Shown here: one piece after another, positions 38 to 35,211 of the stretch | Numbering within the stretch: the first letter of the stretch is position 1 | Layout: each line of letters opens with the position of its first letter | Origin: an uncultured Desulfobacterales bacterium | GTDB lineage: Bacteria; Desulfobacterota; Dissulfuribacteria; Dissulfuribacterales; QOAL01 | Assembly (NCBI GenBank): GCA_964573805.1 | Contig: CAZNKP010000020.1 | Location: forward strand, 75,647-139,646 | Length of the DNA: 64,000 bases | Direction of reading: 5' to 3' | The notes under the pieces: generated by a model | What the model was told of the DNA's origin: nothing | The model's database searches: none | The model's input: only the letters and a program-made list of their open reading frames with translations | Position numbers and translations under genes: made by a program

Positions 38-616
38 ATGGCAAGGATGAAGTTCTTGTGTGACGTAGAACGTTGCATCGATTGCAAGGGCTGTGTGATA
101 GCCTGCAAGGAAGGTAATGGTGTCCCGGTGGGCATAAATAGGAGGCGGGTAATTACCATCAATCAGGGTAAACCTGGCGAGAAGAGCATTTCTATTGCAT
201 GTATGCACTGTTCAGATGCTCCCTGCATAGCGGTTTGCCCTGTTAGTGCCATATATCAACGCGATGACGGTATAGTGCTGGTAAACAAGGATGTCTGTAT
301 CGGATGCGGTTACTGTTTTATCGCCTGTCCTTTCGGTGTGCCCCAGTTCCCCAAGGGGGATATCTTTGGAAAGCGCGGTGTCATGGACAAGTGCACTTTT
401 TGTGCAGGAGGACCAGCACCAAACTTCAGCGAGAAGGAAAGGCGCCTGTATGGTCAGAACAGGATCGCCGAGGGCAAGGTTCCTCTATGTGCTGCTATGT
501 GTTCTACAAAGGCACTCCTTGCAGGAGATGGAGACGTAATTTCACGCATATTCCAGGAAAGGGTGGCCAAGAGGGGAACAGGCTCTAAGGCCCCTGGCTG
601 GTCTGTTGCTTATTAG
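38..616 (+). CDS. 4Fe-4S iron-sulfur (beta) subunit of a formate dehydrogenase / DMSO-reductase-family complex (FdnH/NrfC-like)
   Basis: 192 aa with four ferredoxin-type Cys clusters (CIDCKGCVIAC, CMHCSDAPCIAVC, CIGCGYCFIAC, CTFC...CAAMC). GGGAGG Shine-Dalgarno 7 nt upstream of the ATG. Followed by a cytochrome b-type subunit. Confidence 0.8.
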   Translation: MARMKFLCDVERCIDCKGCVIACKEGNGVPVGINRRRVITINQGKPGEKSISIACMHCSDAPCIAVCPVSAIYQRDDGIVLVNKDVCIGCGYCFIACPFGVPQFPKGDIFGKRGVMDKCTFCAGGPAPNFSEKERRLYGQNRIAEGKVPLCAAMCSTKALLAGDGDVISRIFQERVAKRGTGSKAPGWSVAY

Positions 617-639
617 TTATAGTTGATTTGGGTGAGGGG

Positions 640-1512
640 ATGAAGGGCGTTGTGCAAGGGCGCAGTATATGTCAGCTGGGCATTGTAACAGTCTATGTGC
701 TCGGTTGTTGCTTGGTGTTTGCTTCTGAAACGCTTCTAAGGAAATCCGGTTTTGTCTCCACCCCCCAGATTTTTAGAGAATTCGGGTTGGTGCCCCAAGA
801 CTGGCAACATTATGCTCCAGACTTTATTGCCTTTATAAATAACCTTTGCAGGTTTTACCTGCCCGTGATATTCGGAGTTCCTCTTGTCTTTCTGTTGCAT
901 TATATAACGATTGGGCCAAAAGAGTTTGACCATTCAGGCAAAAAAGTATGGTTTTATTCTTCTCTTGTAAGGTTTTTGCATTGGTTGTGTGCTGTATTTT
1001 TCACGTTGCTTGTAATAACAGGTCTTATGATAGTTTTTGCAAAGCTGTTTGGCGGTGGTGCTGGAATACTTTGGGCCAGGACGGTGCATCTTGGCTGTGC
1101 CTACGGATTTGCAGTAACTGCCACTCCTCTTTTCTTCATATGGATAAGAGATATGTTTCCTGCCCCTTACGATCTGCTTTGGCTTGCGAAGGCAGGTGGA
1201 TATCTTACAAAGAAGACTGTGGAGGTCCCTGCAGGCAAGTTCAACTTTGGACAAAAGATATGGTTTTGGCTAGCCTTTGTTGGTGGAGGCATAATGTTTT
1301 ATACAGGCTACTATGTCAGTACTATGGCAGGACAACAGCCTGAAATGGCAGGCTTTATTAAACTTCATCTTATCCTTGGCTTGTTTATTGTAGCCTTTTT
1401 TGTTACCCACCTCTACATGTCTCTTTTTGTTGTTAAGGGTTCCTTAAAAAGTATGCTTTCTGGCTATAAATGGGAAGAAGAAGTGAGAATCCTTCATGGC
1501 AGGATGCTCTAA
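640..1512 (+). CDS. Membrane cytochrome b-type (gamma) subunit, FdnI/FdoI-like
   Basis: Multi-TM protein with conserved His in the helices (FLHWLC, RTVHLGC, KLHLILG, VTHLYM). Sits immediately downstream of the Fe-S subunit. The ORF opens at 628; ATG at 640 is preferred and the start is uncertain. Confidence 0.7.
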   Translation: MKGVVQGRSICQLGIVTVYVLGCCLVFASETLLRKSGFVSTPQIFREFGLVPQDWQHYAPDFIAFINNLCRFYLPVIFGVPLVFLLHYITIGPKEFDHSGKKVWFYSSLVRFLHWLCAVFFTLLVITGLMIVFAKLFGGGAGILWARTVHLGCAYGFAVTATPLFFIWIRDMFPAPYDLLWLAKAGGYLTKKTVEVPAGKFNFGQKIWFWLAFVGGGIMFYTGYYVSTMAGQQPEMAGFIKLHLILGLFIVAFFVTHLYMSLFVVKGSLKSMLSGYKWEEEVRILHGRML

Positions 1513-23828: not shown

Positions 23829-24401
23829 TTATTTTCTTATCCATTTTCCAGGCTTCTTTTCTATAAAAGTACCCTTTGGGGCCGTATTTTGCCACTGTTG
23901 GGCGAAAATGGCCTGCACCCTTGCCAGCTGTGACGATGGAATGTTCAATGCTTGGGCAACGGCATTGTAAAGGGCCATTCTATCGCTGTTTTCTGCGTCT
24001 ATAAGTTTTTTTAAGTTTGCCTTCTCTTTCAGGCCAAGTCCAGAAAGGCTTCTGATGGTAAGAAGACCGTTTAGCCCTTCACCTATCAGTCCCTTTGCCA
24101 TATAAGGAGCAAGGGCGGGGAAGCGTTTTTTCATCCTTTCTTTAAGTTGACGTATGGTTGCATTTGATACGGTAAGCTCACTAGCTGCATGCGCCTCTGA
24201 AACAGAAAAGAACCAGGATGTAGGAGATGGTGTTGCCGGCTGCCCGTCCTGTTTAGGTTGTTGTTCTCGCACGTCTTTAACTATGTCTTCTGCAGCCTTT
24301 CTTACCTCAGCAGCTGGAAAATAGATATTTACAGTTACACATGCTGTCAAAAACAATAAAAGCATAGGCACCAAAAGTCCCCGGTTTTTTGTTACTGTCA
24401 T
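23829..24401 (-). CDS. YdbL-like DUF1318 lipoprotein
   Basis: 190 aa with lipobox LFLTAC. The C-terminal ~100 aa match the DUF1318 pattern by eye (GLIGEGLNGLL...LIDAENSDRMALYNAVAQALNIP...FIEKKPGKWIRK). Confidence 0.75.
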   Translation of the reverse strand: MTVTKNRGLLVPMLLLFLTACVTVNIYFPAAEVRKAAEDIVKDVREQQPKQDGQPATPSPTSWFFSVSEAHAASELTVSNATIRQLKERMKKRFPALAPYMAKGLIGEGLNGLLTIRSLSGLGLKEKANLKKLIDAENSDRMALYNAVAQALNIPSSQLARVQAIFAQQWQNTAPKGTFIEKKPGKWIRK

Positions 24402-24402
24402 A

Positions 24403-26103
24403 TTATTTCACCTCCACTTTACTTTGACCGGACTCGCTGATCCTTTTGAGTCTATCAAGCATGTCCCTGAAACTTATCCTACCGTTGGGATTCATATTAA
24501 TAACATTAACGCCACCCCAAAAGCCCCTTTTTACCAAATATTCCTTTCCTCCACTTTTATAGAGACCATGGAGTTCAAATACATCGTTTTTGAGCCTGCA
24601 GGATATTCCTATACGACTGTAAGAGAATTCTTTAAAAAGTCCGCCAAGAAATGATACAGAACCTCCTCCTCCTCCAAGTATAGAGAGATTCTCAATGGCT
24701 TTGATGCTGATTTTTTTGGGTTCTTTAGAAGATTGATCAGTCTCTATCTGCAAGTCAAAGGCCTCTGGTTGTCCTCCGCTCATGATCAGCCCTTTTATCC
24801 ATCCATTAATTTTGCCAGTAACTAGACCAAAAGAAGTGTCTTTGCTAAACTCTTTAAGATCAATATGGGAGAAGCTTATATCAGCGCCCCATCGCGGGAT
24901 GGCTGCATAGGGCTCAATCCAGATATTGGTTATCTCAATTTCACCTTTTGCGACTTCTATGTCAATTTTTCCTTTAAATAAAAGCCGATCTTTTTCAAAA
25001 TTTGCCTTTGGTAAGGTGCCGTTTACCACTATTTCAAGAGGAACGTTATTTAAGAGCTCGTTAACTTTTAGATTGTTAATTTTGATATTTTTTAGAACCA
25101 ATGTTCCACGTGAAAATAGAAATTGGGCCTCTTCCATTGATATGATACCAGAGCCAAGACTTAACCTTAGAGTCCCAAGATGGAGACTTTTGTGACAAAG
25201 GGTCACAGGAAGACTCGTTCCGAGTATGGCCATGCTAGCATGTTTTTTGAATATTCCTCTGGGAATTAGCGGAGCAAGATAAACTTCCTGCCACATCAAG
25301 GTTCCTTTGTCGCACCTTGTATCAGAAAGAGGATAGGAAAGATGTGCCTCAAGCCCCTTTATCAGCCTTTTCTCTTTGTAGAAAATATCACTGGTAAGCC
25401 TAAGCAAGATGCTTGTTGACTTGCCCTGTAATAGAAGTCTGCCATTGGGTCTGAAGTCTTTAACTATAGGCCGAGAATCAGAAAAGGCATCCCTTATAAA
25501 GATATTATAAGTACGTTCGATATTTGCATCCAACTGCCAATTTGCTTTTATAAGACGGTTTAAAAAAACGTTTCCCTTGTTTGCATTTTTGGGCAAGGCC
25601 AGCCTCTTAATCTTTAGAGAGAAAGGGCCGTACAATCTGAAATCTTTGATGAAAATTTGACGGTCAGTAACTTTGCCTTCTGCCTTAAGGCTCCCTTTTA
25701 CTTCAGAAAGATCAAGAAACCATGGAAAGATAAGCACTTGGCCTCTAGGCCAAGCAGCCTTGACCTGCCAGGAAAAAGAAGGATTCTTGCCAGATAGGTC
25801 ACCTTCCAAGTCGAAATTCAAAAGGATATCTAGCCCTTCAAAGGCATGGTCTATATCTTTTGAGCCTGCCAGATCTGTTAGATTAAACCTTCCCTTTATG
25901 CACAGTATCTCTCCATCACTAGCTCTTGATACCGAAACGCCTGGCAAGGATAAGGCCAGCCCACTTATTTGATGGGCTGCTAAAGGGTAGGCATGGATTA
26001 TTTTGGGACACAGCATAAATAACAATAGCCCTAGACCTAGCCAGAGGCAGCGATACGGGTATACCTGTCTATTAGGTGTATTCAGATATCTTTTTCTTTC
26101 CAT
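24403..26103 (-). CDS. YdbH-like (AsmA-like superfamily) envelope protein
   Basis: 566 aa. N-terminal signal/anchor (CLWLGLGLLLFMLCPKIIHA) and a beta-rich repetitive body. The call rests mainly on synteny with the DUF1318 gene 1 nt downstream, as in the E. coli ydbH-ynbE-ydbL operon. Confidence 0.5.
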   Translation of the reverse strand: MERKRYLNTPNRQVYPYRCLWLGLGLLLFMLCPKIIHAYPLAAHQISGLALSLPGVSVSRASDGEILCIKGRFNLTDLAGSKDIDHAFEGLDILLNFDLEGDLSGKNPSFSWQVKAAWPRGQVLIFPWFLDLSEVKGSLKAEGKVTDRQIFIKDFRLYGPFSLKIKRLALPKNANKGNVFLNRLIKANWQLDANIERTYNIFIRDAFSDSRPIVKDFRPNGRLLLQGKSTSILLRLTSDIFYKEKRLIKGLEAHLSYPLSDTRCDKGTLMWQEVYLAPLIPRGIFKKHASMAILGTSLPVTLCHKSLHLGTLRLSLGSGIISMEEAQFLFSRGTLVLKNIKINNLKVNELLNNVPLEIVVNGTLPKANFEKDRLLFKGKIDIEVAKGEIEITNIWIEPYAAIPRWGADISFSHIDLKEFSKDTSFGLVTGKINGWIKGLIMSGGQPEAFDLQIETDQSSKEPKKISIKAIENLSILGGGGGSVSFLGGLFKEFSYSRIGISCRLKNDVFELHGLYKSGGKEYLVKRGFWGGVNVINMNPNGRISFRDMLDRLKRISESGQSKVEVK

Positions 26104-27380
26104 CTCAGTGGGAAAAGCAGCGTTACTCTGGTGCCATGGCCTGGGATGCTATCTATCTCGATTTGTCCTTGATGTTCCTTCATGATGTGATGGACCATTA
26201 TGAGCCCCACTCCAGTGCCTGAAGGTTTGGTGGTAACAAGTTCCTTAAATAGTTTAGCCTTTACTTCCCTGCTTATTCCTGGTCCCTGATCCTCGATCTC
26301 AATGGCTGGCCTCCCTTCTATTTTTTTGATCTCCACTTTTATGCTTGCTCCATTGGGAGAGGCATCTGCTGCGTTTTTGAGCAAATGTAATACGGCTACT
26401 TTCAGGGTTCTTGGGTTTCCTCTTATGCGAACTGGATTTTCTGGGGCCTTGAACTCTACCCGAATCCCCTTTTTTTCAAAATTAGGCTGCCAGGCTTCCA
26501 GTATCTCTTTGACCAGATCTTGCAACACGACCTTTGTAAAGAACCTCTCCTGTTCCCTGGCCAATCCTTCAAAGTCTTTTACTATGGCCTCGAGTTTTTG
26601 AGCTTCAAGATATATGGCCTTTATCTTGTCCCTTTCAGAGGAATTTTCAGGAAGTTTTTTCAAAAGTATTCTTGCCAGGCCTCCGATAATGGTGGCAGGA
26701 TTTCGAACTTTATCTGCTATCTTGAGGGCAAATTCTACTATTGTGCGCTCATGGACTAAAGATTCCATGTCTTTGCTAAGCTCTAAAAGTTCAGCATTTA
26801 CCTTATCTAATTCCTTGTTTTTCAAGGAAATGGTTCTTAAAAGCGACAAGACTTCTTGGTGCTTGGCCCTAAGATTTTCAATATAAGATTCCTGCAAGTC
26901 CTTAAAGACCTGTTGGCGAATCTGCTCCTGTCCCTTTAAAAGACTCCCGCAGTCTGGTTCATCTCCAAACAGCATTACCTCTAGCTCAAAGGATCTGTCT
27001 TGGTTGAATTTTTTTATCTCTAACCGATCAGCTATGTTTTTGATTCCTTGAATAAGTTGGTGAATGGGAGAATGTGAATCAAAGGAACGGGGGCATATTT
27101 CACCCCAAAAATGCACCATTAAGCCAGGAAGTCCAGGACTGTCCCATCCGTTAATACTTGCGCATATAATGTAGAAAATAACTCGCCCTCCCTTTGTCTG
27201 TTTTAATAAAAAACGGGCCATTTCTGAGGCCATAAGGGCTATTTTAACGCGTCTAGTACGTGAAAATCCTCCAAGAGTAGCAAGAAGTTTTGCTTTGGAT
27301 CTGACGAGTGGAATGTCTTTCGGGCGTTTGATAACCAAGGTCAAGACGTGAATCTTCTGGCTCAGCTTTTCCATTTCCAC
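26082..27380 (-). CDS. Histidine-kinase-like ATP-binding protein (degenerate N-terminal GHKL-like domain, coiled coil, DHp-like helix, HATPase_c)
   Basis: 432 aa. C-terminal N/G1/G2 boxes (LLKNAADAS, EDQGPGI, GTGVGL). The H-box-like segment FALKIADKVRNPATIIGGLARIL has Asp where the phospho-His is expected. Confidence 0.75.
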   Translation of the reverse strand: MEMEKLSQKIHVLTLVIKRPKDIPLVRSKAKLLATLGGFSRTRRVKIALMASEMARFLLKQTKGGRVIFYIICASINGWDSPGLPGLMVHFWGEICPRSFDSHSPIHQLIQGIKNIADRLEIKKFNQDRSFELEVMLFGDEPDCGSLLKGQEQIRQQVFKDLQESYIENLRAKHQEVLSLLRTISLKNKELDKVNAELLELSKDMESLVHERTIVEFALKIADKVRNPATIIGGLARILLKKLPENSSERDKIKAIYLEAQKLEAIVKDFEGLAREQERFFTKVVLQDLVKEILEAWQPNFEKKGIRVEFKAPENPVRIRGNPRTLKVAVLHLLKNAADASPNGASIKVEIKKIEGRPAIEIEDQGPGISREVKAKLFKELVTTKPSGTGVGLIMVHHIMKEHQGQIEIDSIPGHGTRVTLLFPLRWKEKDI

Positions 27381-28444
27381 ACCACTAGTGCAGCGTCATC
27401 GCACTGCCTATCGCAAGGGAGAAACAGATAGTTTGTCCATATCAAGCTTGGGATATCCATTAGGACCTGTTGAAATTTTATGGGAGGAATAGGGCCAATT
27501 CCGTCTGTGTAAAGGATACCCATTGTTTCTTTAAAATTCTTATAATGCCAGGAAACGAGGCCACTTTTTGAATTTATAGGACCGATAAGCCCCTTTTTCC
27601 CAGAAATTAGATTTTCTTTTCCGTCTAAAAACAAAAGATGGTTTACATTTCCGGCCACAGCGATCTTTACCTCTGGCCTTTCTATATCCAATCTGACCAC
27701 TTGAGCCATCAGGCCCCGTGAGCCAACCATATGATTCCCAAGGGCCATCAGTGCATCCATCGGTTCGGTTTCAGCAGGTAAAAGGGCAAGAAATTTTTTG
27801 GCAGAAAAGATTATTTTTGCTGCCTCTGGACCCTTGCCAAGGGCGTCCATAAGCACCATTAGGATGTAGGGATGCCTGCAGGAAAAAAAGAAACCGTCTC
27901 CACAGTAGAGGTTTCCCTTTGCAGGTCTTACAAGAAAGGATAGCTCCACAGGTAAGCGACTCAAGATGTCTGGAGGTTCTGCAAAGGAGGCAGCAACCAA
28001 GGTTTCATACTCCTTTTTCCCCAACAAAAGATCCGGACAGGGAAAGTCTCCGAGTCTTCCAGAGCACACAGCAAATTCTTCGGCAAGCCTTCTTGCAGTG
28101 CCAAGACCAGCCCCTAAGCCTTGGTTTCCGTAAAAATCTCTGTTGCAGATCCGAAAGACAGGCATTATTCCTGGCCCCTTATCCAAGCTGCATGTTACGA
28201 AAAAGGCCTGCTCTGTTCCAATCCTTTGCCCAAAGAGTCTGATCATTCCTTTGTGGGTATTATGATCTATATGATTTTGGGCAAGTTCGCTTACGCACAA
28301 GACTATATCAGAGATTTTAGAGGAGGAAAAACCAAGTTGCCTGGCAAGCTTGTCCGCTGCCTTTCTGATCAAAAATACATGGGCCTGGATGGATATATCT
28401 TTTTCGTACCACAGGGGTTGTAGCCCATCTATATCCACTTCCAC
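27362..28444 (-). CDS. ATP-binding SpoIIE/PP2C-family protein phosphatase (RsbW-like GHKL domain + PP2C domain, RsbX/RsbU analogue)
   Basis: 360 aa. N-terminal anti-sigma-kinase-like boxes (VSELAQNHIDH, DKGPGI, GLGAGLG). C-terminal PP2C motifs (CGDGFFF, LMDALGKGPEAA, ILYTDGI). Confidence 0.8.
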   Translation of the reverse strand: MEVDIDGLQPLWYEKDISIQAHVFLIRKAADKLARQLGFSSSKISDIVLCVSELAQNHIDHNTHKGMIRLFGQRIGTEQAFFVTCSLDKGPGIMPVFRICNRDFYGNQGLGAGLGTARRLAEEFAVCSGRLGDFPCPDLLLGKKEYETLVAASFAEPPDILSRLPVELSFLVRPAKGNLYCGDGFFFSCRHPYILMVLMDALGKGPEAAKIIFSAKKFLALLPAETEPMDALMALGNHMVGSRGLMAQVVRLDIERPEVKIAVAGNVNHLLFLDGKENLISGKKGLIGPINSKSGLVSWHYKNFKETMGILYTDGIGPIPPIKFQQVLMDIPSLIWTNYLFLPCDRQCDDAALVVWKWKS

Positions 28445-28857
28445 ACCTCCACCCGTGTTCCGCCATCAATAAGGCTTGCAACCCTTAGATCATCTGCAAG
28501 GGCATTCAAAAGATTTAATCCCATGCCCATACCTTTATCTTGAGAAAAGCCTGGGGTCATAGCCTCGGCCAGATCGGATATTCCAGTACCCCGGTCTTCA
28601 GCTACCATCCTTACGGCCTTCTTTTCTCCTTCTTGGTAAACTGTTATACATATCTTTCCTCCTTGACTGTGCCGAAGAATATTGTTTCCAAGCTCATCCA
28701 AGATGGTAAGGGCTTCAGCCTGTTTCATCTCGTTTTTTAGACCCAGCCAAGAAAAAAGCTCCCTTAAGACCTTTCTGGCCTTTGTTAGTCCTACATTTCT
28801 AGATACAGGTGTACACCTTTTGGCTATCGAAATTTTATTTTTTACTGTATCAGTCAA
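28429..28857 (-). CDS. RsbT-like serine/threonine kinase (anti-sigma regulatory factor, GHKL)
   Basis: 142 aa. N box ELGNNILRH, G1 EDRGTGI, G2 GMGMGL. TTG start overlaps the upstream STAS gene stop. Confidence 0.8.
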   Translation of the reverse strand: MTDTVKNKISIAKRCTPVSRNVGLTKARKVLRELFSWLGLKNEMKQAEALTILDELGNNILRHSQGGKICITVYQEGEKKAVRMVAEDRGTGISDLAEAMTPGFSQDKGMGMGLNLLNALADDLRVASLIDGGTRVEVWKWI

Positions 28858-29218
28858 CTCTTATTAGTTTGTGTCCCAGTTTCCCAAGCGCCTGTTCTGC
28901 ATCAAGTGCAAATCTTAGGTTGTGTCCAAAACTCATGTTAAAACTTTTCAAGGCGGCAATTGCAGAAGCTCCAAGGCCTGCCACCACTATCTGTGCTTTG
29001 AAAAGTCCCATGGTAGAGGCGAGCTTTTGTATATTTTCTGCAAGAAAGGTATCTATTACTTCTACATCAGATAGATCTACAATTACAGCTTTTGAATTTG
29101 TGGCCCGCACCTTTTCTGCTAGTTCCTTCAGAAGTTGAAGCACCTGTGCATCGTCTATTTCCTCTTGAAGAGACACAAGGAGGATCTTACCAAGATGAAA
29201 TATTGAAAAAGATTTCAT
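28850..29218 (-). CDS. RsbS-like single STAS-domain protein
   Basis: 122 aa. STAS core VIVDLSDVEVIDTFLAENI, with Thr at the position of the phosphorylatable Ser of B. subtilis RsbS. Confidence 0.8.
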   Translation of the reverse strand: MKSFSIFHLGKILLVSLQEEIDDAQVLQLLKELAEKVRATNSKAVIVDLSDVEVIDTFLAENIQKLASTMGLFKAQIVVAGLGASAIAALKSFNMSFGHNLRFALDAEQALGKLGHKLIRVD

Positions 29219-29226
29219 TCAAGACC

Positions 29227-30108
29227 TCAGAGTTCTTGGTTATCTTCCAATGCCTTAATGGCCTTTACCTGTTTTTGGCGCGTTTTGGTTATCTGTTGCA
29301 TGGCATAATGGAGTCCATCTGCCATGCGGCTCCTTACGTTTATGGTACCAAGATCGACCCCAAGGTGGGCCATGGTCAGGGCAATACGTGAAGAGATTCC
29401 TGTCAGGACCGCCTCGCTTCCCATAAGGCGGACTGCATCAACTGTCTGGAGGAGGTAGTTTGCCACAGCAGTATCGACATTGGGTACCCCTGTAATATCA
29501 ATAATAACAAAGGGAGCGCGTGTTGACTCTATTGTAACGAGTAATCTTTCCATTGCGGATTGTGCCCGATGGCTGTCAAGTGTACCAACCAGCGGGAGCG
29601 CCAAGACCCCGTCCCATACTTCGATAACTGGCGTGGAAAGTTCAAGGATTTCTTCTTGCAAGTGGCGGATGTCTTCATCACGTTTTTTTAAGAGTTCTTC
29701 TTGCTGCCTGAGGATGAGCCTTTCCTTTTCAAGACGGTCAGAAATGTCTATGAAATGTTCAACGCAACCTATTATCTCTCCCTGATGATTTTTTATAGGG
29801 CGGCTGGCAAACTCGATGGGTATCTCTTTCTCTCCTACTTTTAAAGTGGTCTGTCCTTGATTGACTGTATTGTTTTTCGTGGCTACCTTGCAGGTACATT
29901 GATCTGTCTGGCACATTGGTGTATGGAATATCTCGTAGCACTTGCGGTCGAAGCAGTCTCCAGGGGTTCTGCCAACTAGTTCTGCCCCCGCCTTGTTAAT
30001 AATAAGTATATTGTTATCCAGGTCTGTTACAAATATGCCCGAGGGAACGGCATTGATTATCTCAAACAGGAATCCTTCATCTCCTTGGTAGTCCTTTAAT
30101 TCAGTCAT
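29227..30108 (-). CDS. RsbR-like sensor: Cys-rich PAS domain + coiled linker + STAS domain
   Basis: 293 aa. PAS (INAVPSGIFVTDLDNNILIINKAGAELVG...), linker, then STAS (PVIEVWDGVLALPLVGTLDSHRA...VIIDITGVPNVDTAVANYLL). Strong AAGGAGGGAGG Shine-Dalgarno upstream. Confidence 0.8.
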   Translation of the reverse strand: MTELKDYQGDEGFLFEIINAVPSGIFVTDLDNNILIINKAGAELVGRTPGDCFDRKCYEIFHTPMCQTDQCTCKVATKNNTVNQGQTTLKVGEKEIPIEFASRPIKNHQGEIIGCVEHFIDISDRLEKERLILRQQEELLKKRDEDIRHLQEEILELSTPVIEVWDGVLALPLVGTLDSHRAQSAMERLLVTIESTRAPFVIIDITGVPNVDTAVANYLLQTVDAVRLMGSEAVLTGISSRIALTMAHLGVDLGTINVRSRMADGLHYAMQQITKTRQKQVKAIKALEDNQEL

Positions 30109-30291
30109 GACCTCCCTCCTTTTGATCGTGTAATAAAAAATTTTAGCAAAAAGGGGGCATTTCGTCTAATAACCGCCCTGTTAATCAAGCAGATAAAAAA
30201 TAAAAAGTTGCATTCGCATTTAAGAAAAAAAGCGGCAAATCCGATGGATTTAATGAAAATAAGGATTTTTAAAGGAGGCTTAAAGATTCTC

Positions 30292-30978
30292 ATGAAAAAT
30301 TATTTAAAAAAAAACTTTTTCTCAAAATCTAAAAGCCAGATGGCAGGTTTTACATTGATAGAGATGGCCATAGTTCTTGTAATTATTGGTATCATCATAG
30401 GCGCTGTTATGAAAGGACGGGATCTCATAAAATCTGCCCAGATCAAGAATGCCTATGAAACCTTTTTTGCTGCCCATTACAAGATGATCGGTTCCTATTA
30501 TGATAAGACAGGAAGAATCTTGGGGGATGGAACCATTAATGGGGGAACTGGTACTAACCCAAATGGTTGGATGGACAATATCGGTCTTTACAATGGAACA
30601 AACAGAAGCAATATCATCAATGCCCTAAAAAGTGTTGGAATAGATGTATGCTCTTTAGTAAAAAGCAACCTTACATCTACCGAATGTGGCCCAAATGGAT
30701 TGAACATTGGCCAGATTTCTCTAGATGGCGAATATGCCAGGCAGACCGTTTGGGTAGGTTATTATTATGCAAACTTTGCCGGAAGGTATAGAAACTATCT
30801 GAGGATCGATAGGATACCTACAGACTTTGCCATCGCCCTGGATAAGATGATAGATGGGGTTGCAAATTGTGCATCAGGTTCCTTTGTTGTCGTTCCTGGA
30901 GAGACCTGTAATAACGGCCAATGGCCTGATGCCAGCTCCACACCCTATGTAAGGGCCGCTTGGATTGTAGAGTTTTAG
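30292..30978 (+). CDS. Type IV pilin / pseudopilin-like protein (probable major subunit)
   Basis: Start set at ATG 30292 (AAAGGAGG upstream). Class III signal MKNYLKKNFFSKSKSQMAG|FTLIEMAIVLVIIGIIIGAV with Glu at +5. About 209 aa mature. Confidence 0.8.
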   Translation: MKNYLKKNFFSKSKSQMAGFTLIEMAIVLVIIGIIIGAVMKGRDLIKSAQIKNAYETFFAAHYKMIGSYYDKTGRILGDGTINGGTGTNPNGWMDNIGLYNGTNRSNIINALKSVGIDVCSLVKSNLTSTECGPNGLNIGQISLDGEYARQTVWVGYYYANFAGRYRNYLRIDRIPTDFAIALDKMIDGVANCASGSFVVVPGETCNNGQWPDASSTPYVRAAWIVEF

Positions 30979-31006
30979 TTTTCCACCAACCACCTCCTCC
31001 TCATAT

Positions 31007-31034
31007 GCCGGACCTGCTAGAAGGCAGGTCCGGC
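31007..31034 (+). terminator. Perfect 11-bp GC-rich hairpin after the pilin gene (attenuator or mRNA-stabilising element)
   Basis: GCCGGACCTGC (31007-31017) and GCAGGTCCGGC (31024-31034) around a 6-nt loop. No U-tract. Lies between the pilin stop and the ATPase start. Confidence 0.45.
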
Positions 31035-31078
31035 CACATTCAAAATACCTGTCCAAATGCTAGCAAGGGTCTGTATCT

Positions 31079-32725
31079 ATGAACAGAAATAAGAAACCAC
31101 TTGGAGCACTTTTAAAAGAACAAGGCCTTGTCACCGAGCAACAGATCCAATTCGCCTTAGCCGAGCAAAAGGCAACCGGGGAAAAACTCGGCGAATGCCT
31201 CATGCGTCTGGGTATAATTACCGATTCGGAGCTTGCCATTGCTCTCTCTAAACAGACAGGTGTCCCCTATATAGATCTCAAGTCTTTTTCGGCAAATAAA
31301 GAGGCCTTGAGAAAGGTGCCCTCGCATATTGCAAGGACCCAGCAAATCTTGCCCCTGCGTTTAAATGGTAATGAAATAGAGGTGGCAACGGCAGACCCCT
31401 ATGATCTCAATGCTACCCAGATAATACTCAGGGCAACAGGACTCAGGGCCAGACTCTTTGTTGCCGCGGAGGGAGAAATCAGGAAGCTGGTTGAACGATA
31501 TTACTATCTTATTGAACATCCTGTTGATGAAGAGATTCTGAAGATTATTCAGATGGCTAGCCAAAGATCCGGTATGGAAATAGACATGACCGGATTGACC
31601 GACCTTATTCTTACCTCGGCAGTTATACAAAGGGCTACAGATGTACATATCACTCCAAGTGATCGTTCTTGCAGGATTATGTTCCGGATAGATGGGGTAT
31701 TAGAGGCAAAGTATGTTTTCCCTTTTAAAATCCACAACAAGATTATAACCAACCTTAAGGTCAAGGCGGGGATGGATATATCCGAACAGAGGAGAGCCCA
31801 GGACGGCCGGATGTCCTTCGAGTTTCTTGGAGACAGTTTTGACATCAGGGCGTCTACAGTAAAGACAAATTTTGGAGAAAACATGGTGCTTAGGCTTTTG
31901 CCATCCAAGGGCGAATCCCTATTAAACCTGGAACAACTTGGTTTCCATAAGGAACAGCTTGGGCTTATTCAGCGTCTTTTTTCTCGTCCCTACGGTATCG
32001 TGCTCATAACTGGTCCTACCGGCAGTGGAAAAACAACAACACTTTATGCAGCCTTGAGGCGCCAGAATGCCATAGAGAAAAATATAGTTACAGTTGAAGA
32101 TCCGATTGAATACCAATTTTTAATGATAAGACAGACCCAAGTCAACACCAAGGCTGGGTATACCTTCGCCTCTGCAATCAGGACCTTTTTGCGTCAGGAT
32201 CCAGATGTGATTTTGGTAGGCGAAATTAGGGATAGCGAAACCGCTTCCCTTGCAACCCGGGCTGCCATTACAGGGCATCTTGTCCTTTCCACCCTTCACA
32301 CTAACAGCGCTGTAGGGGCCTTGGCCAGGCTCAAAGATTTAGATATTTCTCCCTATCTGCTTTCAACTTCTTTGTCAGGGATAATTGCCCAGCGTTTGGT
32401 AAGAAAACTTTGTCCTTATTGCAAGAATCCTTCTCGTCCCACCCCTGAGGAGGCTGCAGCCCTGGATATACCACCTGAGACAGAAATCTTTAGAGAAAAG
32501 GGCTGTAGTCAATGCAGGAATACCGGTTTTATGGGCAGGACAGTTGTTGCGGAAATCCTTAGTTTTTCGGAGGCATTGCTGAAACAGGTGGCTAGAGACG
32601 AACCACTTAGCGAGATACTTTCCACTGCCCATTCTGAAGGTTTCTTGCCTCTTAAAGAGCAGGCAAGACTAAAGGTAATTAACGGAGTAACAAGTCCTGG
32701 CGAGGTAAGGAGGGTGATTGGCTGA
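31079..32725 (+). CDS. GspE/PilB-family type IV filament assembly ATPase with an MshEN-type N-terminal domain (MshE-like)
   Basis: 548 aa. Walker A GPTGSGKTT, Asp box VEDPIEY, Walker B DPDVILVGEIRD, His box GHLVLSTLHTN, tetra-Cys CPYC...CSQC. Two tandem 24-residue MshEN-like motifs in the N-terminus. Confidence 0.9.
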   Translation: MNRNKKPLGALLKEQGLVTEQQIQFALAEQKATGEKLGECLMRLGIITDSELAIALSKQTGVPYIDLKSFSANKEALRKVPSHIARTQQILPLRLNGNEIEVATADPYDLNATQIILRATGLRARLFVAAEGEIRKLVERYYYLIEHPVDEEILKIIQMASQRSGMEIDMTGLTDLILTSAVIQRATDVHITPSDRSCRIMFRIDGVLEAKYVFPFKIHNKIITNLKVKAGMDISEQRRAQDGRMSFEFLGDSFDIRASTVKTNFGENMVLRLLPSKGESLLNLEQLGFHKEQLGLIQRLFSRPYGIVLITGPTGSGKTTTLYAALRRQNAIEKNIVTVEDPIEYQFLMIRQTQVNTKAGYTFASAIRTFLRQDPDVILVGEIRDSETASLATRAAITGHLVLSTLHTNSAVGALARLKDLDISPYLLSTSLSGIIAQRLVRKLCPYCKNPSRPTPEEAAALDIPPETEIFREKGCSQCRNTGFMGRTVVAEILSFSEALLKQVARDEPLSEILSTAHSEGFLPLKEQARLKVINGVTSPGEVRRVIG

Positions 32726-33927
32726 TGAGTTGGTACAGGTATGAGGCCCTTGCCCCTGACGGTACGAAGATAGTTGATGAAGGCCAATTCGGGACCTCTG
32801 CCGAGCTTTATAGGAGCCTTCGGGATCAGGGCTACGTACTGCTTGACTATAAAAAAAAGATATTCAGGTTCGGAAGCCTGTTTCCCGTCAGGATAAAGCG
32901 TGGTGTACTTGCAGAATTTTTCAGGAATCTTGCACTCGTACTGAAGGCAGGAGTACCTTTGGTTGAGGCACTACAAGATATTGCGGATTCACCAGGTGCA
33001 GTAAAGTTCAGGATCGTTATTAAGGACCTTGTACAGAGAATAAGGTCTGGAGAACTTTTTTCCGAGGCCCTTTCCCATCATGAGTCTATTTTCCCAAACA
33101 TAGTTATAGTTCTCGCCCGTCTCGGTGAGGAGACAGGACAGCTTGACAGGACCCTTGAGGATGCTGCCAACCATCTGGAAAGGGTCCAAGAAATTATTGA
33201 TAAGACCAAACGGGCCCTCAGTTATCCTGTCGTAATTTTGACAGCCATGATTGGTGCTTTGGCGTTTTGGCTTATCTATGTGTTGCCAAAGTTGTTTGAG
33301 TTGTTCAAAAGTCTTGGCCTAAAAAAGCTCCCTATTATGACAAGGATACTTTTTTCGGTTGTAGAAGGGGTTAAGGCCTACTGGTTCGTCTTGCCAACGA
33401 CAGTGGTTATTTTGACTGTTTTTGGCATTTTGGCATCCAGGAATCAAAAGCTAAAGCTCTTTTGGGATACCTTGTGGTCTAAGGTGCCACTTGTCGGGAG
33501 AATAATCAAGGCCTCCCAGCTGGCATTCTTTTTTGAATACCTGGCCCTTCTCACAGCTTCTGGCATAGATGTCATTAGAAGTCTTGATGTGATGGAGGGC
33601 GCCATTACTCATCAGATATTGAAGAAAGACATCTCTAAGGTAAAGAAACTGGTACTTTCAGGCTTTTCTCTATCCGAGGCTTTTAGAGAGTGCTCGTTTT
33701 TCGAGGCCTTTATCCTCCGTATGATAAAAGTGGGAGAGACTACCGGCCATATGCCTGAACAACTCAAGATACTGGCAGATTTTTATATGGTAAAGGTAAA
33801 CAGGATGGTGGATTCCATGGCCAAGACCTTGGAACCCCTGCTCATAATATTCGCTGGCATAATATTTGTAATCATAGTTATGGGTCTACTTGGTCCAATA
33901 TATGACATGATGGGGAGTCTCAAATAA
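32725..33927 (+). CDS. GspF/PilC/MshG-family platform protein
   Basis: 400 aa with two T2SSF-type repeats and 3 TM segments. ATG overlaps the ATPase stop (TGATGA). Confidence 0.9.
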   Translation: MSWYRYEALAPDGTKIVDEGQFGTSAELYRSLRDQGYVLLDYKKKIFRFGSLFPVRIKRGVLAEFFRNLALVLKAGVPLVEALQDIADSPGAVKFRIVIKDLVQRIRSGELFSEALSHHESIFPNIVIVLARLGEETGQLDRTLEDAANHLERVQEIIDKTKRALSYPVVILTAMIGALAFWLIYVLPKLFELFKSLGLKKLPIMTRILFSVVEGVKAYWFVLPTTVVILTVFGILASRNQKLKLFWDTLWSKVPLVGRIIKASQLAFFFEYLALLTASGIDVIRSLDVMEGAITHQILKKDISKVKKLVLSGFSLSEAFRECSFFEAFILRMIKVGETTGHMPEQLKILADFYMVKVNRMVDSMAKTLEPLLIIFAGIIFVIIVMGLLGPIYDMMGSLK

Positions 33928-35211
33928 ATGGCACAGCATGTAACCGATTATCTGCAGTGGTTTCATTTCCGGGAACCGCCTTTTAGGCTTTCTCCTGATA
34001 TTGACTTTTTTTTCCCGTCCAAGGCCCACAAACAGGCCATTGAGATCCTGAAATATGGCATAAGCAGAGGGGAAGGTTTTATGGTGCTTAGCGGTCAGGC
34101 AGGCACTGGGAAGACCATGCTTTTGCGTTTGTTGTTAAGGGATCTTCCCGAGGAAAAACAGGCAGCATTTATTGTGACTCCTGCAGTGAGTCCTAGGGGG
34201 CTTCTAACTCTGCTTTTAGAGGAGTTAGACATTCCTATAACTCCTGAAAGGAGGGAGCTTGCCCTTCTTCTGAAAGATTTTCAGGAGCATATAATAGCTC
34301 TGGCCAAAGAGGGAAAGAGTATAGTCATAGTAATTGACGAGGCCCAGGATCTACCACTTGAAACCATCGAACAGTTACGGTTGCTTTCGAATATAGAGAC
34401 CAGAAAGAAGAAACTTGTTCAGATTCTGCTTGTTGGTCAGCCAGAGCTACGCTCTCTTCTTGCAGACCCTAGGCTTTGTCAGCTTACACAGCGTATAGTC
34501 ATAAATGAGATCCTTGCTCCCCTTGGAGAGCAAGAGACTGCAGACTATGTTCAATTTCGTTTATCTAGGGCTGGAGTGGGAGATTTAGGAATCTCAAAAC
34601 AGTTTTTCCCTGAATTACATAAATACACTAGAGGGCTGCCAAGGCTCATAAACAGGGCCATGGACAGGGTGCTTCTTATGGCTGCCGCTTCTGGCTCCAT
34701 GGTTCTTACCCCTTCTCATCTCCATGATGCCATGTCTACATTGCCTGAGCCTGTGTTTCAGCAGGAGATTAGGTCGTATTCAGGGGCAAGGCTGGCTGCC
34801 ATCAGTAGGAATTTGGGGTTTATAGCCATGGGTTGTGGTGTAGGAGCAGCTCTGTGTTTTCTGCTCTTTTCTGGCAATATATTACATCGTACAGAAGGTC
34901 CCTTGCCAGTTAAAGCTGAGATTACCAAGGCCGATTCAGCAATGTTTCCTGTCAAGGTTTCTGTCAAGAGCGTAAAGATTCATGCCCAACCAGCCAAAAC
35001 TTCCCATGTTGTTACCACTGTCAAGAAAGGTCACGGACTTATGGTCTTAGAAGAAAAGGGTAAGTGGTTTAGAGTCCAGGCCCAAAATTCTCAAGGGGAA
35101 GCCTTTAAAGGCTGGCTGCTCAAGAAGCAGGTGGAAAGGAGTTTTAGTGCGATTAATACCTTTTCAAAGAAAGAAGTGGATTGTCCAGAAGGACCACAAA
35201 GGTCAATTTGA
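33928..35211 (+). CDS. ExeA/MshM-like AAA+ ATPase with a C-terminal TM segment and SH3b-like domain
   Basis: 427 aa. Walker A GQAGTGKT and Walker B VIVIDEAQDL. TM LGFIAMGCGVGAALCFLLFSG. C-terminal VKIHAQPAKTSHVVTTVKKGHGLMVLEEKGKWFRVQA...GWLLKKQV resembles bacterial SH3. Confidence 0.8.
   Translation: MAQHVTDYLQWFHFREPPFRLSPDIDFFFPSKAHKQAIEILKYGISRGEGFMVLSGQAGTGKTMLLRLLLRDLPEEKQAAFIVTPAVSPRGLLTLLLEELDIPITPERRELALLLKDFQEHIIALAKEGKSIVIVIDEAQDLPLETIEQLRLLSNIETRKKKLVQILLVGQPELRSLLADPRLCQLTQRIVINEILAPLGEQETADYVQFRLSRAGVGDLGISKQFFPELHKYTRGLPRLINRAMDRVLLMAAASGSMVLTPSHLHDAMSTLPEPVFQQEIRSYSGARLAAISRNLGFIAMGCGVGAALCFLLFSGNILHRTEGPLPVKAEITKADSAMFPVKVSVKSVKIHAQPAKTSHVVTTVKKGHGLMVLEEKGKWFRVQAQNSQGEAFKGWLLKKQVERSFSAINTFSKKEVDCPEGPQRSI

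Follow-up and report, generated by a model that had tools for sequence, protein, structure and literature searches.

A conserved cysteine-rich PAS domain in an RsbR-like protein of an uncultured Desulfobacterales bacterium as a candidate Fe-S sensor of the stressosome

A stretch of 64,000 nucleotides from an uncultured Desulfobacterales bacterium (contig CAZNKP010000020.1; hereafter the window) was found to carry, on its minus strand, the gene for an RsbR-like sensor, the first gene of a stressosome-type operon. The PAS domain of this sensor contains six cysteine residues, all of which are conserved among its orthologues with at most two exceptions. Three of them, C57, C66 and C71, form a triad shared with a large subfamily of PAS domains. 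We put at about even the chances that this domain is an iron-sulfur (Fe-S) sensor of redox state, O2 or reactive species feeding the stressosome, in which the triad and one additional ligand hold the cluster. To our knowledge, the signal perceived by a stressosome has been identified in few instances, namely blue light for YtvA and O2 for the heme-globin RsbR of Vibrio. A Cys site resembling that of the redox-sensitive regulator OrpR on a stressosome input would offer a chemically defined and testable signal (redox, O2, sulfur species) in strict anaerobes.

Conservation of the cysteines in the RsbR-like sensor

The sensor gene, its domains and the residues under study are located as follows.

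29227..30108, minus strand: gene for the RsbR-like sensor (PAS, linker helix, STAS), an open reading frame (ORF) of 293 amino acids (aa) matched by Pfam PAS_4 and STAS and by RsbR chains in the PDB
29734..30054, minus strand: PAS core, residues 19-125, from Pfam PAS_4 (E-value 1.1e-12), the AlphaFold2 (AF2) model and Foldseek
29635..29742, minus strand: linker helix between PAS and STAS, about residues 123-158, from the AF2 helix 123-138 and the alignment with the YtvA/RsbR linker plus STAS
29353..29631, minus strand: STAS domain, residues 160-252, from Pfam STAS (E-value 1.2e-14)
29890..29955, minus strand: Cys run C52-x4-C57-x8-C66-x4-C71-x-C73, from the ORF translation and the codons
29764..29766, minus strand: codon of C115 (gca on the plus strand, read as tgc) on the I-beta strand, the sixth conserved Cys of the clade of RsbR-like proteins and histidine kinases (RsbR/HK clade)
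29758..29760, minus strand: codon of E117 on the I-beta strand, the acidic residue co-occurring with the triad, from conservation

Orthologues were collected from one genome per GTDB species by scanning with two peptide patterns, one of which is free of Cys. All of the 59 loci detected belong to Thermodesulfobacteriota, either metagenome-assembled genomes or isolates, and the hosts include Desulfobulbaceae, Desulfobulbia, Thermodesulfatator, Dissulfuribacterales and Desulfurivibrio. The PAS identity of these loci to the query ranges from 50 to 94%. Conservation was counted for 60 orthologues with identities of 50 to 95%. C52, C57, C66 and C71 were present in all 60, C73 in 58 and C115 in 59. 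E117 was also invariant among orthologues. The conservation of the five-Cys run, which an earlier note on this DNA had proposed to check, was thus observed in nearly every orthologue. C66, C71, C73 and C115 are included in neither search pattern. In addition, two orthologues, L045 (GECFDQKC) and L050 (GECFDQQC), lack the full pattern G[DE]CFDRKC and were therefore retrieved through the Cys-free pattern; both keep all six Cys. The conservation is therefore no artefact of ascertainment.

The same note had counted H62 as a part of the site. Position 62 is His in only 4 of 58 orthologues and otherwise mostly N, D or K, and H62 was rejected as a ligand on this ground. Word-indexed homologue searches gave 2 and 9 proteins, among which P0001 and P0002 have retained all five Cys but not H62. 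At position 65, the orthologues in the RsbR clade have only M, L, I or V, and never His.

The placement of C52, C57, H62, C66, C71 and C73 was confirmed by residue counting and by the codons; on the plus strand, gca at 29890-29892 corresponds to tgc for C73 and aca at 29896-29898 to tgt for C71, and therefore the span 29890..29955 extends exactly from C73 to C52. The frequency of Cys is 1.31% in the 50 ORFs of the window that encode 150 aa or more (18,798 residues in total). At this frequency, the probability of finding at least five Cys per 22 residues is 8.6e-6, and about 0.16 such stretches are expected over the 18,798 residues. The Cys cluster is then somewhat unexpected by composition, and its conservation is the stronger argument against chance.

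The ORF translation contains GDCFDRKCYEIFHTPMCQTDQCTCK, and the exact 293-aa protein is also present on a 73.8-kb metagenomic contig. Besides PAS_4, the Pfam models PAS_9 and PAS matched the PAS region. The STAS half (residues 142-272) was matched by the RsbR chains 7o0i, 6qcm and 7b0u with an E-value of 1e-25 in a phmmer search against PDB. The YtvA structure 2mwg was matched with an E-value of 2.7e-15, and the NCBIfam model YtvA_fam matched residues 141-259 with an E-value of 1.1e-23, below the cut-off of the model. As these Pfam domains and RsbR matches are accompanied by RsbS/RsbT-type genes downstream, the earlier assignment as a PAS-containing RsbR-like sensor is correct. The position of the RsbR phospho-threonine (equivalent to T171/T175) is occupied by D178-S179, the sequence being 'GtiDtera' in Listeria RsbR and 'GtlDshra' here, and neither D178 nor S179 varies among 34 orthologues. 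S179 is thus predicted to be the phosphorylatable residue at the RsbR-equivalent position. T213, at the second phospho-site of STAS, is present in the query and is not conserved among the orthologues.

A wider family of PAS domains carrying the cysteine triad

When 1.84 billion representative proteins were searched exhaustively with HMMER, 16,325 matches were obtained at E-values of 1e-3 or below, and 74 at 1e-30 or below. The top 150 representative proteins yielded 417 PAS copies for re-alignment. The triad C57-x8-C66-x4-C71 was identified in 237 of these copies, and 116 of the 150 proteins contain one to five triad copies. Among the 237 triad copies, C52 was found in 85, C73 in 109, both in 35 and neither in 78, and C115 in only 9. 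The five-Cys run, treated in the earlier note as one entity, is not the conserved unit; the core is the triad C57/C66/C71, to which C52, C73 and C115 are joined. The latter three are additions that the RsbR/HK clade has made to the family triad.

Conservation within the triad copies extends beyond Cys. K56 was detected in 207 of the 237 copies, D or E at position 59 in 170, T63 in 193 and T68 in 201. E117 was found in 217/237 triad copies as compared with 51/180 of the non-triad PAS copies. The family consensus derived from the 237 copies is K-C-[YFH]-[DE]-x-[FL]-x-T-x-x-C-x-T-x-x-C plus the I-beta Glu, and the query fits this consensus at K56, C57, Y58, E59, F61, T63, C66, T68, C71 and E117. 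Position 65 is His in 125 and Asp or Glu in 54 of the triad copies. Taken together, the sequences define the Cys-triad PAS as a large subfamily, within which the RsbR/HK clade is marked by fixed C52, C73 and C115 and by the loss of His65. The number of Cys per PAS domain in this hit set was 1.7 for non-triad copies, 4.4 for triad copies and 6 for the query. The claim that the Cys density is unusual therefore holds against PAS domains in general but not within the triad subfamily, given that 237 of the 417 copies carry the triad and 35 carry all five Cys.

The triad PAS was found mainly as tandem copies in soluble chemoreceptors. The ten top matches, by their Pfam domains, include five chemoreceptors with MCPsignal (three of them with HAMP or HAMP_2), one HATPase_c kinase and two further PAS-STAS proteins. 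P0003 to P0008 and others are soluble chemoreceptors with two to five tandem Cys-triad PAS copies, and in some of them, such as P0006, P0007 and P0008, every copy contains all five Cys plus His65. A sister pattern was observed in 50 of the 180 non-triad copies (P0045-P0151), in which C57 and C71 are kept, K or E stands in place of C66, and H or R is frequent at position 52, as in H-C-E-K-C-V.

No dedicated model for the triad family was found in Pfam or NCBIfam, where only the generic PAS and sensory_box models match, and the clusters of family members are named in general terms alone, for instance 'PAS domain-containing protein' or 'methyl-accepting chemotaxis protein'. A tblastn search of plasmids with a domain resembling the family consensus gave no match. 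In the literature, no description of the Cys-triad PAS family was found beyond OrpR, including any link between stressosome and Fe-S or between chemoreceptor and [4Fe-4S]. As the family is large and appears to have neither a curated model nor a solved structure, the identity of the cofactor would annotate many sensors of anaerobes at once, in particular the chemoreceptors with up to five repeats of this PAS.

Location of the cysteine site and its candidate cofactor

The AF2 model, constructed with the 60-sequence family alignment, showed a canonical PAS fold with a predicted local distance difference test score (pLDDT) of 93.9 and a predicted template modelling score (pTM) of 0.83. Strands were modelled at residues 24-28, 33-37, 83-91, 94-106 and 112-121, and helices at 39-44, 49-52, 57-60 and 72-79. 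An N-cap helix was located at 11-19, and a C-terminal helix (123-138) extends toward STAS, running to the end of the construct. The domain is thus predicted to be a five-stranded antiparallel PAS fold with the C-alpha to F-alpha helices, and Foldseek gave a probability of 1.00 against the PAS domains of NifL, LOV and DosP. In this model, C52 is at the end of the D-alpha helix, C57 at the start of E-alpha, and C71 and C73 at the start of F-alpha. C66 is placed within an 11-residue coil (61-71) lacking secondary structure and modelled at pLDDT 96-98, and C115 and E117 are both on the I-beta strand.

The position of these residues relative to a known cofactor pocket was indicated by profile alignment with the LOV domain 6rhg. 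C57 coincides with the flavin-adduct Cys of GRNCRFL; C115, E117 and F119 alternate along I-beta, and F119 is at the flavin-contacting Gln position of LOV. In LOV domains, the residues equivalent to C57 and to those on I-beta line the flavin pocket. By this alignment, the conserved Cys and Glu residues are predicted to lie in the walls of the cavity that holds the cofactor in canonical PAS domains. The identity as LOV was rejected, because the signature GXNCRFLQ or GRNCRFLQG is absent, the local sequence being DRKCYEIF, and F119 takes the place of the I-beta Gln.

The exact coincidence of C57 with the flavin-adduct position is also what is expected if a Cys ligates or covalently attaches an organic cofactor, such as heme with a Cys-thiolate or a thioether-linked flavin or tetrapyrrole, and heme or flavin is common in PAS pockets. 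Such a cofactor is very improbable here, because the flavin-related GRNCRFLQG and I-beta Gln are missing, the heme-ligand His of F-alpha is absent, H62 is not conserved, and three to six Cys are needless for one link. The lack of a CxxCH motif, as stated in the earlier note, was confirmed for the entire 293-aa sequence, in which the CxxCH of c-type heme PAS domains (DcrA or GSU0582-like) was not found. C-type heme was accordingly rejected by motif, and so was the NreB-type site, there being no CX2C pair.

The closest characterised analogue appears, from the published motif spacing, to be OrpR. OrpR (DVU2106) is a sigma54 activator of D. vulgaris Hildenborough, of which the PAS domain holds a redox-sensitive [4Fe-4S]2+ cluster convertible to [3Fe-4S]1+ by mild oxidant (PMC8359166). 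The cluster of OrpR needs C52, C61 and C65, and a conserved D/E54 is located within 6 A (PMC8359166). The motif C52-x-[D/E]54-x6-C61-x3-C65 of OrpR corresponds to C57-x-E59-x6-C66-x4-C71 in the present protein, only the last spacer being one residue longer. The two systems share an N-terminal cytoplasmic PAS domain, an anaerobic host (a sulfate reducer for OrpR) and redox potential as the proposed signal. They differ in the output, which is an AAA+ sigma54 activator in OrpR and STAS/stressosome here, and in the three further conserved Cys (C52, C73 and C115) of the RsbR clade. By the same spacing, OrpR is probably a relative of the Cys-triad PAS.

NreB had been cited in the earlier note as the precedent for a PAS domain binding Fe-S through four Cys. 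The PAS of S. carnosus NreB holds a [4Fe-4S] cluster by the motif CX2CX11CX2C, and that of B. licheniformis NreB, with CX2CX11C, holds a [2Fe-2S] cluster by three Cys plus a labile sulfur, as seen in a 1.52 A structure (PMC13478379). Neither motif is present in the query, of which the Cys are spaced by x4, x8, x4 and x1, and NreB is therefore a poor analogue, the spacing of OrpR being far closer. NreB also differs in being a Firmicutes histidine kinase without STAS. Neither the PDB profile matches at E-values of 0.01 or below nor the 50 listed Foldseek matches include an NreB chain. What NreB has in common is the Fe-S cluster within a PAS domain controlling a kinase, and the three-Cys coordination in B. 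licheniformis provides a model for the triad core. In the PAS classification by Xing et al., Fe-S is mentioned only for nine NreB-like domains.

From these comparisons, we propose that an Fe-S cluster is ligated by the conserved Cys within the canonical PAS pocket. If it resembles that of OrpR, this cluster would be of the [4Fe-4S] type, with a possible conversion to [3Fe-4S] or [2Fe-2S]. Its core ligands would be C57, C66 and C71, and the fourth could be C52, C73 or C115, or else the acidic E59 or E117. The cluster would stay intact under reducing or anoxic conditions, and be converted or destroyed by oxidants such as O2, reactive oxygen species or raised redox potential, and possibly nitric oxide or sulfur species. 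The resulting change in the PAS core would be transmitted through the linker helix to STAS, which is assumed to form a stressosome-type complex together with RsbS. As a consequence, the RsbT-type kinase and the kinase-PP2C fusion would be sequestered or active to a different extent, and so, finally, would the adjacent DHp-CA kinase that lacks the phospho-acceptor His. What the analysis shows is the architecture of the protein, the operon, the conservation of the Cys, the confinement of the orthologues found to Thermodesulfobacteriota, the fold and the placement of C57 at the LOV-Cys site; the binding and the type of the cluster, its signal and all later steps are inferred.

The proposal of an Fe-S cluster is supported by the conservation of six Cys, the co-variation of the triad with E117, the OrpR-like spacing, the three-Cys precedent of B. 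licheniformis NreB, the location of C57 at the LOV-Cys site, the confidently modelled coil around C66, the anaerobic hosts, and the precedent of the Vibrio vulnificus stressosome described below. As the Cys are near-invariant in the orthologues and all orthologues found are from anaerobic Thermodesulfobacteriota, a metal or cluster is a reasonable expectation and is considered likely. To this extent, the earlier suggestion of an Fe-S or zinc site for sensing redox, O2 or metal in an anaerobe is retained, while its basis on NreB and the participation of H62 are not.

Several observations weigh against an Fe-S cluster. Fe-S and Zn sites are not separable by sequence. The classical CxxC or CxxCxxC elements are absent from the spacing, and six Cys exceed the needs of one cluster. 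His65, beside C66, is common in the wider family as noted above, and Cys3His is a typical zinc set. The fourth ligand has no clear candidate, since 35 of the 237 triad domains lack C52, C73 and H/D/E65 altogether, and 22 have all three; swapping of the fourth ligand, by which C52 or C73 would compensate for the loss of His65, was not supported as a general rule. The kinship to OrpR rests on the motif spacing given in the paper, which differs by one residue. No solved structure of a triad family member was found by PDB profile search or among the Foldseek matches listed, which include only generic PAS and LOV domains.

The Cys3His pattern of the wider family favours a mononuclear metal, either Zn(Cys)3-4 with a structural or Zn-sensing role or rubredoxin-like Fe(Cys)4, stapling the loop between E-alpha and F-alpha. 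The sensor would then respond either to this metal or to some other ligand. The triad with His65 or Asp/Glu65 would give zinc-type sets of Cys3His or Cys3Asp, and the long coil 61-71, modelled with confidence, fits a metal-stapled loop. WalK provides an example of a cytoplasmic PAS domain that binds Zn (bioRxiv 10.1101/405365; PDB 4mn5, 4mn6), but with His, Asp and Glu as ligands. We nevertheless regard the mononuclear site as unlikely, in view of the absence of CxxC knuckles and of the six Cys together with E59 and E117 toward the same pocket, which exceed the needs of structural Zn. Furthermore, the closest motif match, OrpR, holds Fe-S and not Zn (PMC8359166), and a purely structural zinc leaves unexplained the restriction of the orthologues found to anaerobic Thermodesulfobacteriota.

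The closeness of several Cys in sequence, including the CxC pair C71/C73, and the sulfur-cycling nature of the hosts raise another possibility, that the site is a metal-free thiol switch, in which reversible disulfides, persulfides or polysulfide bridges form upon exposure to oxidant or sulfane sulfur and rearrange the PAS domain. The PAS domain of ArcB, which signals through redox-active cysteines, is a precedent for this type of control. ArcB is included among the redox-sensing PAS proteins in a published list (PMC8534201). Two Cys are, however, normally enough for such a switch, and the invariant triad with T63, T68 and E117 over hundreds of divergent copies is not needed for it. The triad in OrpR-like spacing, moreover, binds a cluster (PMC8359166). 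Altogether, the thiol switch is considered quite improbable.

Stressosome operon and its likely kinase output

The genes downstream of the sensor gene are as follows.

28850..29218, minus strand: RsbS-like single STAS protein (Pfam STAS), syntenic in 55/59 loci
28429..28857, minus strand: RsbT-like kinase (Pfam HATPase_c and HATPase_c_2), a separate gene in 18/59 loci
27362..28444, minus strand: fusion of an RsbT/RsbW-type kinase with PP2C (SpoIIE), from Pfam, syntenic in 52/59 loci
26082..27380, minus strand: DHp-CA 'histidine kinase' (Pfam HATPase_c, E-value 7.8e-22, and weak HisKA), syntenic in 57/59 loci

The order RsbR-RsbS-(RsbT)-kinase/PP2C-kinase was found to be conserved, with the RsbR gene first. 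The fusion protein contains HATPase_c_2 at residues 21-126 (31.5 bits; cut-off 27.4) and SpoIIE at 194-316 (23.9 bits, just under the cut-off of 25). In 41 of the 59 loci, a separate RsbT was undetected, and RsbS is directly followed by the HATPase_c_2-PP2C fusion. Most of these loci are among the more distant ones and bear the label Desulfobulbaceae, Desulfobulbia or Desulfobulbus (L020-L058, for instance L026:6905-8300), and there the kinase domain of the fusion may replace RsbT.

The last kinase of the operon has an unusual H-box. It reads FALKIADKVRNPATIIGG (IADKVRNP), with Asp at the position of the phospho-acceptor His, and all of the 47 orthologues of this kinase carry IAD[KRQ][IV]RNP with the same replacement. 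Unrelated neighbouring kinases in L015, L016, L057 and L058 read AHEIRNP. Five proteins of about 400 aa (L059:6001-7230, L060:5060-6259, L061:6001-7182, P0020 and P0028) have no STAS domain and carry the Cys-PAS directly on the core of the His-less kinase, where it takes the place of about 190 N-terminal residues of the kinase. C52, C57, C66 and C71 are kept in all these fusions, and C73 is lost in L060. By the Rosetta-stone argument, the fusions imply that the PAS signal ends at the His-less kinase, and this DHp-CA kinase is likely to be the output partner of the Cys-PAS.

Two characterised stressosome systems provide points of comparison. YtvA of B. subtilis, a LOV-STAS protein responding to blue light, likewise consists of a PAS-type sensor, a helical linker and an RsbR-type STAS, and its photoactive LOV Cys aligns with C57. 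YtvA is different in that it uses a LOV domain with flavin mononucleotide and SigB as output, whereas the present protein has a Cys cluster without LOV signature, in an anaerobe, and a His-less kinase. The stressosome of Vibrio vulnificus includes an O2-sensing RsbR with heme-globin, and its RSTX module is followed by a two-component system (PMC9237108). In both V. vulnificus and the present operon, kinase-type output genes come after the stressosome genes with no sigma factor, and the RsbR carries a cofactor for sensing gas or redox, which is predicted in our case. The sensor differs, however, being globin with heme in V. vulnificus and PAS with a predicted Fe-S cluster here, and so does the output, since here the phosphatase and an RsbT/W-type kinase domain form a single protein and the downstream kinase is devoid of the phospho-acceptor His.

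We give only a small chance to a composite model of the six-Cys pocket. In this model, C57, C66 and C71 would hold the Fe-S cluster, and the adjacent C52, C73 and C115, with the C71-x-C73 pair among them, would act as reactive thiols, so that sulfide, polysulfide or the thiol-disulfide status is sensed rather than oxygen, with the output via the Asp-for-His kinase. Such a site would be similar to that of ferredoxin:thioredoxin reductase or to the labile-sulfur [2Fe-2S] of B. licheniformis NreB. If this is the case, Thermodesulfobacteriota that disproportionate sulfur or reduce sulfate would read the sulfur/thiol state by means of their stressosome. We know of no stressosome for which output chemistry through an Asp-for-His kinase has been described.

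Other genes in the window were noted around the operon. On the minus strand, the kinase gene is followed by a 566-aa ORF without Pfam match (24403..26103), co-conserved in 15 of the closer loci, and by the gene for a DUF1318 protein (23829..24401), co-conserved in 9 of them. In the divergent direction, a gene cluster (30208..35211, plus strand) for type IV pilus or a system like type II secretion (T2SS) adjoins the stressosome operon. This cluster, including genes further upstream in L001, encodes an N_methyl pilin-like protein, a T2SSE ATPase with MshEN, T2SSF, an AAA_16/SH3_3 protein and a secretin; it is located next to the stressosome operon in only four loci (L003, L004, L008 and L010). 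At the start of the window, a 192-aa protein with several ferredoxin-type CxxCxxCxxxC motifs (38..616, plus strand) is followed by a 294-aa hydrophobic protein (628..1512, plus strand), and the pair resembles an Fe-S subunit and a membrane subunit from an oxidoreductase of anaerobic metabolism.

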